DNA from: an uncultured Alphaproteobacteria bacterium
GTDB lineage: Bacteria > Pseudomonadota > Alphaproteobacteria > HIMB59 > GCA-002718135
Direction: 5' to 3'
Assembly (NCBI GenBank): GCA_902621165.1
Contig: CACNKX010000001.1
Span: 213,071-277,070 of the forward strand
DNA: 64,000 nucleotides
How positions within the stretch are numbered: position 1 is the stretch's first letter; every line of letters starts with the position of its first letter. Of the stretch, positions 17,042-21,147 are shown piece by piece. Position numbers and translations under genes: made by a program. The notes below the pieces were generated by a model. The model had not been told where the DNA came from. It searched no databases and worked only from the letters and a program-made list of their open reading frames with translations.

Positions 17042-18031
17042 ATGATATCAAAAGGCGTTAAATCAATATTTCCAATAAAAAACCAAGAAATTTGGGATAG
17101 GTACAAACAACATATTCAAGCCTTTTGGACAACTGAAGAAGTATCTTTGCAAGATGATTTAAGAGATCTTGAAACTTTAAATGATGGTGAAAAGCATTTT
17201 ATTAAGCACGTACTTGCATATTTTGCTAACTCCGAAGCAATGATTAATGAAAACTTAGCAAGTAGGTTCTACAAAGAAATTTTAATTCCTGAAGCAAGAT
17301 GTTTTATATCTATACAAATGTTGAATGAATCAATTCATGCAGAGATGTATGGTCTACAAATTGAAGCTTATGTAAAAGATGCAAAAGAAAAAGACATGCT
17401 TTTTGATGCAATACAAAACGTGCCGTGTATTAACCATAAAGCACAATGGGTATCAAAATGGCTCAATGGTAGTCAAAATTTATTAACAAGACTAATAGGA
17501 TTTGGATTAGTTGAAGGTTTATTTTTTGCTGGCTCTTTCTGTGCAATATATTATTTCAGAAAAAGAGGTTTATTACCTGGTTTAGCATTATCTAACGACT
17601 GGATTGCAAGAGACGAAGGAATGCATTTTAGTTTCTCATCTCTTATGTTTAGAACTTTAAGAGATAAATTTAATAATAAAACATTAACTGATGCAGATAT
17701 TAGTGATTTGTCTTTGATACCCTCAGATGTGCCTCAATCACAATTTGAAGAAATTGTTAGAGAAGCAGTAGCATTTGAAAAAGAATTTGTAAGAGATGCT
17801 TTACCAGTAGATTTAATTGGTATGAATCAAGACTTAATGTGTCAATATATTGAAGCTGTTGCAGACAGAATTGCTGACCTATTTGAATTTGACAGAGTCT
17901 TTAAAACAGAAAATCCTTTTGATTTTATGAGAGCTTTAGATGTACAAAATGTTACTAACTTTTTTGAAAAAAGGGTATCTGAATATCAACGACCTACAGA
18001 TAGAGCTTTAAGTTTTGATGAAGCATTTTGA
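17042..18031 (+). CDS. nrdB: Class I ribonucleotide reductase beta subunit, eukaryote-like
   Basis: 329 aa with FWTTEEV, HVLAYFANSEAMINENL, NESIHAEMY, VEGLFFAGSF, RDEGMH and the ENPFDFM...NFFEKRVSEYQ motif. Confidence 0.97.
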   Translation: MISKGVKSIFPIKNQEIWDRYKQHIQAFWTTEEVSLQDDLRDLETLNDGEKHFIKHVLAYFANSEAMINENLASRFYKEILIPEARCFISIQMLNESIHAEMYGLQIEAYVKDAKEKDMLFDAIQNVPCINHKAQWVSKWLNGSQNLLTRLIGFGLVEGLFFAGSFCAIYYFRKRGLLPGLALSNDWIARDEGMHFSFSSLMFRTLRDKFNNKTLTDADISDLSLIPSDVPQSQFEEIVREAVAFEKEFVRDALPVDLIGMNQDLMCQYIEAVADRIADLFEFDRVFKTENPFDFMRALDVQNVTNFFEKRVSEYQRPTDRALSFDEAF

Positions 18032-18270
18032 TGGAAGCAGAGATATACTCTAAAACTAATTGTGGATACTGTGATAGAGCTAAACTACGGTTAGCTAAAT
18101 TTAATCCAAAGATTTATATGCTTGATACAGATTATACGAGAGAAGATTTTTTTGAAAAGTTTCCGAACGCTAAAACCTTTCCTCAAATAATTTTAAATGG
18201 TGAAAAAATTGGAGGGTATCATGAACTTGAAAAATGGTTTGAAATGAATACCTTTGACGAAGAATTCTAA
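18031..18270 (+). CDS. Glutaredoxin (CGYC active site), RNR-operon associated
   Basis: 79 aa from the ATG at 18031, which overlaps the nrdB TGA as TGATG; the ORF track extends to a TTG at 18028. It has the CGYC motif and TFPQIILNGEKIGGYHEL. Confidence 0.9.
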   Translation: MEAEIYSKTNCGYCDRAKLRLAKFNPKIYMLDTDYTREDFFEKFPNAKTFPQIILNGEKIGGYHELEKWFEMNTFDEEF

Positions 18271-18395
18271 ATAACCTTTTTTTTTCCTTTTCTTGAGTAA
18301 GTTTTTTTATTTCTAACAATTCTTTGTTTATATTTGGGTAGTTTTAAATCTTGAGCAAAGGGATTTCTTTTCTTAATTTTTTTTTTTATTTCCAT
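18267..18395 (-). CDS. Small basic protein (42 aa), candidate ArfA-like alternative ribosome-rescue factor
   Basis: Hand translation gives MEIKKKIKKRNPFAQDLKLPKYKQRIVRNKKTYSRKGKKKVI, ending at a TAG. The ATG lies 10 nt after the polA stop. The core P-x-Y-K-Q-R-I-x-R-N-K-K...T-Y-S-R-K-G-K resembles the E. coli ArfA core [23 protein letters not shown] (recalled from memory). It is below the ORF-track length cutoff. Confidence 0.5.
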   Translation of the reverse strand: MEIKKKIKKRNPFAQDLKLPKYKQRIVRNKKTYSRKGKKKVI

Positions 18396-18405
18396 AAAAT
18401 GTATT

Positions 18406-21147
18406 CTAATGTGCCTGTCCCCAATGATCACCAGCACCAAAATCAACAGTGAGTGGAACTGAAAAGTCTTTGTATTTTAAATGTACAGACTCCATAATCT
18501 TTTTTACATTACTTACTAAATTGTCATATTTTTTAGTTTCGACTTCAAAGATTAGTTCATCATGTACTTGTAAAAGCATTTCAGCCTCAATATTTTTAAG
18601 TTTTATTTCCTTATGAATTTCTATCATTGCTAACTTAATAATGTCTGCTGCACTACCTTGGATTGGTGCATTAATGGCTTGTCTTTCTGCAAAACCTCTA
18701 ACAGCAAAATTCTTATCGGCAATTCCCTTAATATTAATTTTCCTTTTAAAAATTGTTTCAACGTATTGATTTGTTTTTGCGAAATCAATTTGATGCTCCA
18801 TATATTTTTTAATTTTTGGGTATTTAATAAAATACTCATTTATGTAATCTTTTGCTTCAGTATTGGAAATGTCAAGTTGTTTAGCTAAACCGTATGGACT
18901 AATTCCATATAGAATACCAAAATTAATTGCTTTTGCTTTTCTTCTATAATCATTATTTATTTGACTATCGTTTAGATTAAATATCTCTTTAGCAGTTGAT
19001 GCATGAATATCTTCATTGTTTTTAAAAGCTTTAATAAAATTTTTATCACTAGAAATTTCTGCAGCTAATCTAAGCTCTATTTGAGAGTAATCAAAACTGA
19101 CCAATTTTTTTCCTTTTCCACTAACAAAAGCTGTTCTTATTTTTTTTCCATTTTCAGTTCTAATTGGGATATTTTGAAGATTTGGATCCGTAGAGCTTAA
19201 TCGACCTGTTAAAGTATTAGCTAAACCAAATGATGTATGAACTCTACTTTTACTATCTGTTAATCTAAATAAAGCATCTGTATAGGTTGATTTAAGTTTT
19301 GTTAATTCCCGCCAATCAAGAACGAGCTGAGCAATTTCAAATCCATCTAAGGCTAAATTATTTAAAGTTGAAGAATCAGTTGAATATGTTCCTGATTTTG
19401 TTTTTTTACCACCAGGTATTTTAAGATTAACGAATAATATCTCTCCTAATTGTTTAGGCGAGCCAATATTAAACTCTTCTTTTGAAAGTTTATAAATATT
19501 CTTTTCAAGTTTTTTACTTTCATTCTCAAATTCATTACTAAGACTTGTTAAAAAATCTTTATTTACCTCAATACCATTTGCCTCGATTGAAGATAATACC
19601 TCTACAAGTGGTAAATCAATATTTTGATAAACAAAATTAGCTTTTTCTTTTATTAAGCGAGGATAAAGATGATGAAAAAGCCTGAATGTTAATAGAGAAT
19701 CTTCTGCAGCATAATTAATTGCTTTATCAATAGTTACTTTATCGAAAGTAATTTCATTTTTCCCTGTTCCAACAACTTCCTTATACTTAATTGTAGTATG
19801 ATTTAAGTGATTAAATGATAGATCATCTAAATTATGTTTAAAAATTCCATTATCAATTGAATAGGAAATTAACATTGTATCTGCAATTGAATTAAAAGTT
19901 ACTCCATACTTATTTAAAATTCTAATATCATATTTTATATTTTGCCCAATTTTTAAGATAGATTCATTTTCACATATTTTGTTAATATGATTAATCACAT
20001 ATTTTTCCTCTAACTGGTTATCAATTTTTTTAGAACCATCTAAACTGGTATGGTTTATAGGAATATAATAAGAAATATTTTCACTGCTACAAATTGATAT
20101 ACCAACTAATTTAGCTTTTTCTATATCGAGTGAATTAGTTTCAGTATCTATAGCGCAAATACCATTTTTTTTAATTTCACTTAAAACTTTTTCAAAATCA
20201 TTCTTTGAATTAATTAATTGATATTTTGGTTTTATTTCTTTTTTTGGAACTATATGATCATTATCACTAGATATAAAAGAATTAGATTTTAATCTTTCAG
20301 ATGTTGATCTAAAGCCCTGCTCTTTAAGAAAATTAAAGATATTATTATTTTCATTTTTTAATTCATTATAAGTTCTAATTCTATTAATGCTCTCAGGTAT
20401 TTGGACATCGTTTTTAAGTGTTACAAGTTTTAAACTTAATCTAATGTCATTTTCTGATTCTGCTAAAATATTTCTTCTTTTTTCTTGTTTAATTTTATCA
20501 AGATTTTTAATTAAACCATCAATATCATTAAATTCATTTATTAACTGAGAAGCTGTTTTTGGACCAATTCCAGGAGCGCCTGGAATATTATCTACTTTGT
20601 CGCCTGTTAAAGCTTGGATAAAAATAACTTTATTAGGTTTAACTCCAAATTTTTCTTCAACGTCTTTAATTTCTATTTTTTTATTTTTCATTGGATCAAG
20701 CATTGTCACTTTATTACTAACAAGTTGCATTAAATCTTTATCTGAGGAAACTATGATAGTCTCAATTTCATCTTTTTCAGCCAACTTAACATAGGTAGCA
20801 ATTAAATCATCAGCTTCAAATCCTTCTATTTCTAATTGAGGGATATTAAAGCTTTTTACGCATTCTCTAATTAATGGAAACTGTGGAACTAAATCGTCAG
20901 GAGCTTCTCCTCTATTAGCTTTGTATTCTGGGTAAATTTTATTTCTAAAATTTTCTCTTGCAGCATCAAAAATAACAATCATTTTATCATCACTATAATC
21001 TTCAATCAGTTTCACAAGCATGTTAGTAAATCCAAAAACTGCATTAATTGGGGTACCGTCAGCACGACTCATTGGAGGAAGACCGTAATAAGCTCTAAAA
21101 ATATACGCTGAGCCATCAACTAATATTAATCTACTCTTTTTATTCAT
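18406..21147 (-). CDS. polA: DNA polymerase I
   Basis: 913 aa with a 5'-3' exonuclease N-terminus, a 3'-5' exonuclease domain, and pol motifs DYSQIELR, RRKAKAINFG and QVHDEL. Confidence 0.97.
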   Translation of the reverse strand: MNKKSRLILVDGSAYIFRAYYGLPPMSRADGTPINAVFGFTNMLVKLIEDYSDDKMIVIFDAARENFRNKIYPEYKANRGEAPDDLVPQFPLIRECVKSFNIPQLEIEGFEADDLIATYVKLAEKDEIETIIVSSDKDLMQLVSNKVTMLDPMKNKKIEIKDVEEKFGVKPNKVIFIQALTGDKVDNIPGAPGIGPKTASQLINEFNDIDGLIKNLDKIKQEKRRNILAESENDIRLSLKLVTLKNDVQIPESINRIRTYNELKNENNNIFNFLKEQGFRSTSERLKSNSFISSDNDHIVPKKEIKPKYQLINSKNDFEKVLSEIKKNGICAIDTETNSLDIEKAKLVGISICSSENISYYIPINHTSLDGSKKIDNQLEEKYVINHINKICENESILKIGQNIKYDIRILNKYGVTFNSIADTMLISYSIDNGIFKHNLDDLSFNHLNHTTIKYKEVVGTGKNEITFDKVTIDKAINYAAEDSLLTFRLFHHLYPRLIKEKANFVYQNIDLPLVEVLSSIEANGIEVNKDFLTSLSNEFENESKKLEKNIYKLSKEEFNIGSPKQLGEILFVNLKIPGGKKTKSGTYSTDSSTLNNLALDGFEIAQLVLDWRELTKLKSTYTDALFRLTDSKSRVHTSFGLANTLTGRLSSTDPNLQNIPIRTENGKKIRTAFVSGKGKKLVSFDYSQIELRLAAEISSDKNFIKAFKNNEDIHASTAKEIFNLNDSQINNDYRRKAKAINFGILYGISPYGLAKQLDISNTEAKDYINEYFIKYPKIKKYMEHQIDFAKTNQYVETIFKRKINIKGIADKNFAVRGFAERQAINAPIQGSAADIIKLAMIEIHKEIKLKNIEAEMLLQVHDELIFEVETKKYDNLVSNVKKIMESVHLKYKDFSVPLTVDFGAGDHWGQAH

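Follow-up and report, generated by a model that had tools for sequence, protein, structure and literature searches.

A conserved 42-codon gene between polA and grx of SAR11 bacteria encodes a probable divergent homologue of the ribosome-rescue factor ArfA

Bacteria are believed to be unable to dispense with the freeing of ribosomes stalled on non-stop mRNA, and in most species a second system backs up trans-translation. We describe here a 42-codon open reading frame (ORF) at positions 18267–18395, on the minus strand, of a 64,000-nt stretch of DNA from an uncultured SAR11 alphaproteobacterium (assembly GCA_902621165.1, contig CACNKX010000001.1, positions 213,071 to 277,070), which is referred to below as the window. 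The ORF lies between polA, for DNA polymerase I, and grx, for glutaredoxin. The reading that we favour, with a probability of about 0.65 on the strength of sequence comparisons, is that its product, a minimal, divergent homologue of ArfA, serves in the release-factor-dependent rescue of non-stop ribosomes. The peptide appears to be an ArfA homologue whose tail is shortened and whose N-terminus is altered, without regulation through non-stop mRNA; no such homologue had been recognised in its lineage before. Its ribosome binding, release-factor partner, rescue activity and mode of expression are all properties that we infer.

The reading frame between polA and grx

When 5.8 billion predicted proteins were searched with the window peptide, 66 protein clusters were matched, most of them exactly 42 amino acids (aa) long and mostly 79–93% identical to it; marine metagenomes and genomes of Pelagibacteraceae were their sources. 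With each species represented by one genome, a scan located the ORF in at least 28 SAR11-type single-cell or metagenome genomes, together with four further, more distant alphaproteobacterial homologues. Both the place and the length of the ORF are preserved in at least 29 SAR11 species genomes. We observed that the gene order polA, then the ORF, then grx, nrdB and nrdA in the converging orientation, is common to the SAR11 genomes with inspected flanks, and that it is also kept in deeper Pelagibacterales such as L044, where the ORF reads MIKKINKLKKSNPIAKDLRTPKYKQRQLKNKKFYNRKKEKI. The identity of the polA gene of the window is supported by the Pfam domains of the L044 orthologue, with which it is 64% identical. 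The spacer from polA to the ORF measured 7–10 nt in 31 of 31 loci examined, in the deeper Pelagibacterales the stop codons of the ORF and grx overlap or lie immediately next to each other, and the reading frame was preserved in orthologues that are only about 50% identical.

Comparison of 24 distinct orthologous DNA sequences gave 16, 10 and 31 variable sites at codon positions 1, 2 and 3, respectively, and a ratio of nonsynonymous to synonymous polymorphism (pN/pS) of 0.19 in the frame of the ORF, vs 0.82 and 1.36 in the other two frames. Among the SAR11 orthologues Y22 was invariant, and N11, P12, A14, D16, L17, P20 and Q24 were each at least 90% conserved. The ORF is a genuine Pelagibacterales gene under purifying selection.

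A preliminary description of this DNA, made from its letters alone, had placed the ORF correctly on the minus strand with respect to both ends, its 42 codons, the 10 nt that separate it from the polA stop and the 4-nt overlap with grx (Table 1); it had also proposed to seek conservation of the frame, and selection on it, in SAR11 genomes and metagenomes, and we find the frame conserved in both. Since the ORF starts 10 nt past the polA stop and its TAG overlaps the grx stop, the two stops being shared as CTAA (18267–18270), it fills the 135-bp gap between polA and grx. A gap of this length had been called unusually long for the genome, and the comparison upholds that statement for convergent pairs, because the remaining four convergent gene pairs of the window are separated by −6 to 20 bp; the median intergenic gap in the window is 4 bp (both figures from a crude gene call). 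The ORF had been described as unlisted, which was accurate for the gene list then at hand but not for public data: the exact peptide is already annotated as a 'hypothetical protein' on 431 public contigs, so that the supposition that gene callers with a length threshold would miss it does not hold for all of them.

The TAG stop of the ORF is kept in 23 of 24 SAR11 orthologues. TAA is the dominant stop codon in AT-rich genomes, and TAG has been retained here likely because the CTAA overlap constrains the stops of the ORF and grx alike. Lysine or arginine accounts for 18 of the 42 residues of the window peptide.

Table 1. Features of the polA–grx region of the window (positions are those of the window)
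Feature	Position	Strand	Remarks
ArfA-like ORF	18267–18395	minus	42 codons, ATG to TAG; product MEIKKKIKKRNPFAQDLKLPKYKQRIVRNKKTYSRKGKKKVI
polA, DNA polymerase I, 913 aa	18406–21147	minus	co-oriented with the ORF and upstream of it; TAG stop 18406–18408
grx, glutaredoxin	18028–18270	plus	convergent with the ORF; probable ATG 18031; nrdB and nrdA upstream of grx
Spacer, polA stop to ORF ATG	18396–18405	minus	10 nt; no Shine-Dalgarno-like sequence, no promoter-like site
NPFAQDL, codons N11–L17	18345–18365	minus	aligns to ArfA N14–L20, part of the N-terminal minidomain
PKYKQRI, codons P20–I26	18318–18338	minus	aligns to ArfA A-site segment P23–V29 (PLFRQRV)
Predicted mRNA-tunnel tail RNKKTYSRKGKKK, codons R28–K40	18276–18314	minus	aligns to ArfA K31–G46 minus G35-K36-G37
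A9 homopolymer, codons K38–K40	18277–18285	minus	site of +1/−1 length variants in relatives
A11 run, codons 3–7 of the ORF	18377–18387		second long A run, at the ORF start

Relationship of the peptide to ArfA

Among database and profile searches, homology to ArfA emerged only via hhalign and via the profile of a wider family that is described in the following section. Direct comparison of the peptide with E. coli ArfA by BLASTP gave 14 identities in 33 positions (pairwise E 4e-5). By hhalign, a SAR11-only profile was aligned with a profile of enterobacterial ArfA at an E of 2e-5 and a probability of 77%, with columns 11–39 of the SAR11 profile paired with ArfA residues 14–45 at 45% identity at the profile level. 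In composition-preserving shuffle controls, 2 of 20,000 shuffles of ArfA(1–55) reached the real score against the SAR11-only hidden Markov model (HMM; P about 1e-4), and 6 of 20,000 shuffles of the peptide reached the real score against the enterobacterial ArfA HMM (P 3e-4); therefore, the lysine richness of the sequences is not enough to explain the match. Alignments of 30–40 residues are fragile, above all in the N-terminal part. From these comparisons taken with the orthologues described below, we regard homology between the SAR11 peptide and ArfA as highly probable.

The preliminary description had aligned the peptide with the core of E. coli ArfA, using a sequence which proves to be identical to PDB 5H5U chain 3. 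The similarity it noted exceeds chance by the shuffle controls; its 2-residue gap was incorrect, a gap of three residues (GKG) being required. Its wider suggestion, of a minimal ArfA-like factor in a streamlined alphaproteobacterium, is sustained as to homology by the profile and transitive evidence; the rescue function that it implies is to be read as a prediction.

The transitive evidence comes in part from orthologues that bridge the window peptide and canonical ArfA. The 43-aa protein P0064 begins 9 nt past a polA stop and is nearly identical to the window peptide across the first 27 residues, yet it carries the sequence KKGKGSF and a C-terminal end reading ...KPKKGKGSFKRKKLKV, and it scores 29.4 bits on the Pfam ArfA model PF03889, the gathering score of which is 25.5 bits. 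A second Pelagibacterales relative, P0361 (L048 1206–1418), joins two ArfA-like copies in tandem within 70 aa, the first of the KGKGS type (KKGKGSF) and the second of the short type; it scores 27.4 bits on PF03889 and is convergent to a grx 76% identical to that of the window, with a response-regulator-like gene in the place of polA upstream. That orthologues at the same locus retain KGKGS argues that the window form is an ArfA-type gene which differs by a three-codon indel. Among 47 SAR11 orthologues, 1 matches the Pfam ArfA model and 46 do not. The sole Pfam match of the window peptide is to DUF7230, at E 3.9 and 8.1 bits (gathering score 27 bits); it thus falls below the thresholds of both curated models and is not filed as a formal member of PF03889.

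ArfA is disordered off the ribosome. In cryo-electron microscopy structures of the bound protein, P23 stacks on A1492/A1493, F25 inserts in a pocket of release factor 2 (RF2) at V198/F217, and the backbone of residues 25–29 pairs with RF2 residues 213–217, so extending the RF2 beta-sheet (PMC5378476, PMC6299226). Residues 31–48 occupy the mRNA tunnel, and ArfA that is cut at N47 is still active while ArfA cut after M40 is inactive; A18, L19 and L24 belong to the core of the N-terminal minidomain or its contact with RF2 Trp319 (PMC5378476), and this hydrophobic minidomain, to which I11 also belongs, activates RF2 by way of Trp319. No single residue of KGKGS is essential (PMC6299226).

The peptide is small and basic, as is E. 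coli ArfA (YhdL; PF03889; PDB 5H5U, 5MDV, 5U4I, 5MGP), and the two have in common the ArfA positions N14, L20, P23, F25 (as Y), Q27, R28, V29 (as I), K33, K34, Y39, R41, K42, G43 and K44. In the numbering of the peptide, P20, Y22, Q24, R25, I26, K30, K31, Y33, R35, K36, G37 and K38 are retained at matching ArfA positions, and P20-K-Y22-K-Q-R-I26 pairs with P23-L-F25-R-Q-R-V29 of the A-site segment. Lysine and arginine make up 8 of 13 residues of the peptide tail vs 8 of 18 in ArfA residues 31–48. The peptide as a whole corresponds to the portion of ArfA that takes up an ordered structure when bound to the ribosome; its last residue is equivalent to R48, just past the minimal active length of N47. 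The systems differ in that E. coli ArfA is encoded as 72 aa and is about 52–55 aa when mature, whereas the SAR11 peptide has 42 aa; in that arfA mRNA carries an RNase III hairpin/terminator, whereas the SAR11 ORF has its own stop codon and neither element was seen there; and in the location of the SAR11 gene after polA in an alphaproteobacterium. The peptide has no GGQ, and its 42 aa leave no room for a catalytic domain of the ArfB kind.

A wider family and other rescue systems

An exhaustive HMM search with the SAR11 profile yielded 327 cluster representatives at E≤1e-3, about 36–90 aa in length, with the motif RNPIAkDLRTPKYrqRVVkSKKxYsRK. When 109 members of this family were tested, 107 matched phrog_20887 (best E 6.4e-12), 60 matched DUF7230 (E≤1) and 15 matched Pfam ArfA; the window peptide itself matches phrog_20887 over residues 8–37 (E 3e-5, 24.9 bits). 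A profile of the 109 members was compared with 177,635 PDB sequences and found ArfA chains only, at E 1.3e-6 and over ArfA residues 3–52; against NCBIfam, the 109-member family gave nothing meaningful. We found no paper that mentions DUF7230. Members of DUF7230 and phrog_20887 resemble the peptide in being short (36–60 aa) and in having the motif RNP-x-A-x-DL-x-x-PKY-x-x-R-[VI]-V-x-x-KK-x-Y-x-RK without a GKG insert. The typical members lie in phage-like strings of genes, whereas the SAR11 gene occupies a fixed chromosomal housekeeping locus.

Relatives of the peptide were found in phages of Sinorhizobium, Agrobacterium, Roseobacter-group bacteria and Acinetobacter, in viral contigs, and, in apparently ordinary chromosomal contexts, in other alphaproteobacterial metagenome-assembled genomes (L030–L033). 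The closest viral relatives are 45–53% identical to the peptide and no near-identical viral copy was found; a tblastn search of phage genomes with P0064 gave no match, probably owing to the low-complexity filter. Protein P0373, the one family member that JGI names ArfA, scores 27.1 bits on DUF7230 plus 16.8 bits on ArfA. It is located (L047, JGI Ga0310811_10000939, 37 kb) within more than 20 small same-strand genes without Pfam matches, a neighbourhood typical of a phage early region.

Several individual members deserve separate mention. Two homologues from GC-rich alphaproteobacterial genomes, L030 2995–3141 and L032 2977–3123 (P0103), end in ...RPFAFAA; this end resembles degrons of the ssrA-tag type (...AA) and might confer a built-in short half-life. 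In Roseobacter phage CRP-13 (L034 2492–2632) a family-like frame without an ATG lies out of frame inside CRP13_gp52, and in Acinetobacter phage 133 (L035 2501–2620) a similar frame, also without an ATG, is out of frame with the end of Acj133p022; either frame could be a gene that annotation has missed and that starts at a codon other than ATG, or else a product of frameshifting. Sinorhizobium phage phiM12 (L036 2504–2644) encodes a 46-aa homologue, SmphiM12_363, annotated as a 'hypothetical protein'; a CCA-adding-enzyme-like gene and a gene of the RelA/SpoT family lie a few genes away, so that its neighbourhood is one related to translation and stress.

A 2024 survey of 15,259 genomes reported arfA in 0 of 2,376 Alphaproteobacteria and arfB in 2,022 of the same 2,376, and scored Ca. 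Pelagibacter ubique HTCC1040 as positive for smpB and ssrA and negative for arfB and arfA (PMC11633108). Our literature search turned up no chromosomal arfA of SAR11; the sole mention of ArfA in the SAR11 literature that it covered concerned gp30 of pelagiphage HTVC027P (PMC12753301). Like the peptide, gp30 is an ArfA-family protein of the SAR11 virus-host system (PMC12753301); unlike the peptide, it is phage-encoded and matches PF03889 directly. Searches by tblastn with the SAR11 peptide and with its orthologues did not recover gp30, which is therefore no close copy of the host gene.

With ArfT of Francisella tularensis the comparison is one of published properties only. Like the peptide, ArfT, a rescue factor of 40 aa, is very short and has a basic C-terminal tail, an imperfect KGKGS-like stretch, its own stop codon and no regulation through non-stop mRNA; it uses RF1 or RF2 (PMC6299226). 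It has been reported from Francisella only, its residue at the position of F25 is not aromatic and it resembles ArfA little, whereas the SAR11 peptide retains the aromatic residue and an FRQRV-like strand. BrfA of Bacillus subtilis is described as a small RF2-dependent rescue factor that binds the mRNA channel (PMC6881298); it appeared in none of the searches with the peptide, which thus detected no similarity there, and no direct comparison of the two was made.

Expression, proposed function and alternatives

An in-frame stop directly follows codon 42, at a length corresponding to 'active' ArfA, and we saw no indication of the synthesis from non-stop mRNA by which the level of ArfA is coupled to the activity of transfer-messenger RNA (tmRNA). 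An Rfam search of the whole window found nothing of the E. coli type of arfA regulation and no tmRNA, and prfB, which would supply the RF2 residues W319, V198 and F217, was looked for within the window and is not there. Co-transcription and translational coupling of the ORF with polA is the simplest inference, because there is no promoter-like site ahead of the ORF and its distance from polA is always 7–10 nt; the ORF's own stop, taken with the lack of a hairpin or terminator, points to synthesis that is probably constitutive and at a low level.

Runs of A as long as those in this ORF promote slippage by polymerases and ribosomes. The A9 run is A8 in L014, L018 and L021, and it is A10 in L016. 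With A8, the frame continues antisense to grx and the product is 74 aa long (...KGKKRLFRILHQRYSFQTIFQ...); this read-through form recurs in the metagenome protein clusters P0006 (40 members), P0051, P0066 and P0404. The differences in run length may be errors of sequencing, or they may be a genuine slippage polymorphism, in which case the read-through form would recall the inactive long form of E. coli ArfA. In another locus, L020 2983–3120, an indel near the start codon puts the ATG out of frame (...NTFYGNKKKIKK...).

As an ArfA homologue, the peptide would be expected to act as follows. The tail from R28 to K40, rich in lysine and arginine, would thread into the mRNA tunnel of the 30S subunit only if the tunnel is vacant downstream of the A site, as it would be once a ribosome has halted at the 3' end of a truncated mRNA. 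The PKYKQRI segment would then be placed in the decoding centre, where it would pair with domain 2 of a class-I release factor, probably RF2, with RF1 also possible; the change in the N-terminal hydrophobic patch means that specificity for RF2 is not assured. The release factor would then hydrolyse the peptidyl-tRNA without a stop codon.

A number of our observations weigh against this proposal. The search of the window peptide against Pfam by hmmscan, which the preliminary description had made the test of its own claim, went against it, with no ArfA match at E≤10; the corresponding search of NCBIfam gave no match, and neither phmmer with the window peptide nor hmmsearch (HMMER) with the SAR11-only HMM found anything among PDB sequences. 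The Pfam match of P0064 lies mainly over the lysine-rich half, residues 22–40, and DUF7230/phrog_20887 is an uncharacterised family. In the window the KGKGS element is interrupted, reading KK-TYSRKGK with G35-K36-G37 of ArfA deleted, so that the tunnel tail is 3 residues shorter. The N-terminal minidomain is also altered, with Q15 for A18, D16 for L19 and K21 for L24, insofar as so short a stretch can be aligned with certainty; the hydrophobic residues at the aligned positions are only F13 (for I16), L17 (for L20) and Y22 (for F25). Given the replacement of A18, L19 and L24 by Q, D and K, activation of RF2, if any, cannot be identical to that by ArfA. With regard to the RNA, the single-sequence fold was no better than those of shuffles (z = +2.16), a terminator scan gave 0 terminator-like sites, and an alignment fold of 11 orthologues (alifold −2.6 kcal/mol) revealed no conserved structure or covariation. 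Also, the arfB-negative score for SAR11 in the survey cited above is based on nhmmer, which may miss divergent AT-rich genes.

Some of these same observations would fit the main alternative, in which the peptide is a real, conserved, small, basic protein of the DUF7230/phrog_20887 family with a role other than release-factor-dependent rescue. It might then modulate ribosomes or RNA by binding to them, for instance by inhibiting translation, as a hibernation-like factor or as an RNA chaperone, with ArfA ancestry and a tunnel-binding tail, and maybe acquired from a phage. In favour of such a role, the family is one of phages and has no assigned function, 107 of the 109 members having matched phrog_20887; P0373, a typical member, has small unannotated phage-like genes around it; and Pfam separates DUF7230 from ArfA. 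Moreover, neither the RF2-contacting residues L19 and L24 nor A18, which is critical, are retained, and regulation of the ArfA type was not found. We nevertheless consider it unlikely. The best-conserved block of the family is the very segment of ArfA, P-x-[FY]-[RK]-x-R-[VI], that occupies the A site and pairs with RF2; KGKGS-type orthologues are found at the same Pelagibacterales locus; and the SAR11 gene belongs to the chromosome, where it has been kept by vertical descent at one constant housekeeping locus, with viral relatives that are at closest just 45–53% identical to it.

Constancy of position bears also on the idea of a recently domesticated phage gene, without host function, in the polA–grx spacer, which we hold to be very improbable. 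The relatives in phages of Alphaproteobacteria and Acinetobacter and in viral contigs, and the ArfA-domain protein of pelagiphage HTVC027P (PMC12753301), would speak for such an origin, but the gene keeps its place across Pelagibacterales with polA down to 64% identity, is under purifying selection and has no flanking phage genes. Recent insertion from a phage was rejected on the grounds of this synteny across deep divergence and the lack of a close viral copy. A chance ORF, conserved merely as DNA of the polA and grx 3' ends, is ruled out by the codon-position pattern of substitutions, which are concentrated at third positions with the low pN/pS confined to the ORF frame, and we give it next to no credence. 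The length of 42 codons is fixed across orthologues that are 79–100% identical, the frame is kept at about 50% identity, and there is no RNA structure or terminator at this place to conserve; these facts stand against the very A-rich sequence with its A11 and A9 runs, the lack of a match to curated bacterial families in Pfam or NCBIfam, and the homopolymer-run indels in 5 of the 28 SAR11-type loci listed, which are what a chance ORF might have led one to expect.

A broader proposal, which we put forward tentatively and with the odds somewhat against it, is that the SAR11 peptide and the approximately 330 clusters of DUF7230/phrog_20887 together make up an unrecognised, widespread class of 'mini-ArfA' rescue factors. 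Such factors, made at active length with their own stop, would not be autoregulated through non-stop mRNA, and conceivably might use both RF1 and RF2. Possibly, they serve as a back-up to tmRNA in the most abundant marine bacterium, and possibly also many phages that infect Alphaproteobacteria and Acinetobacter rely on them so that ribosomes stay available during the degradation of host mRNA. It is equally speculative that the slippery A9 run could switch between the 42-aa form and the 74-aa read-through form.

In summary, a conserved ArfA-like gene in Pelagibacterales would fill a gap in the rescue factors of one of Earth's most abundant organisms. If our reading is true, then factors of the ArfA type reach well past beta- and gammaproteobacteria, and Pfam DUF7230 and PHROG 20887, which are common in phages, have a first functional lead. 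The peptide would also be a naturally occurring 'minimal ArfA' that does without the GKG loop, the N-terminal hydrophobic patch and regulation through non-stop mRNA, and as such it would make testable which features of ArfA are needed for the recruitment of a release factor.

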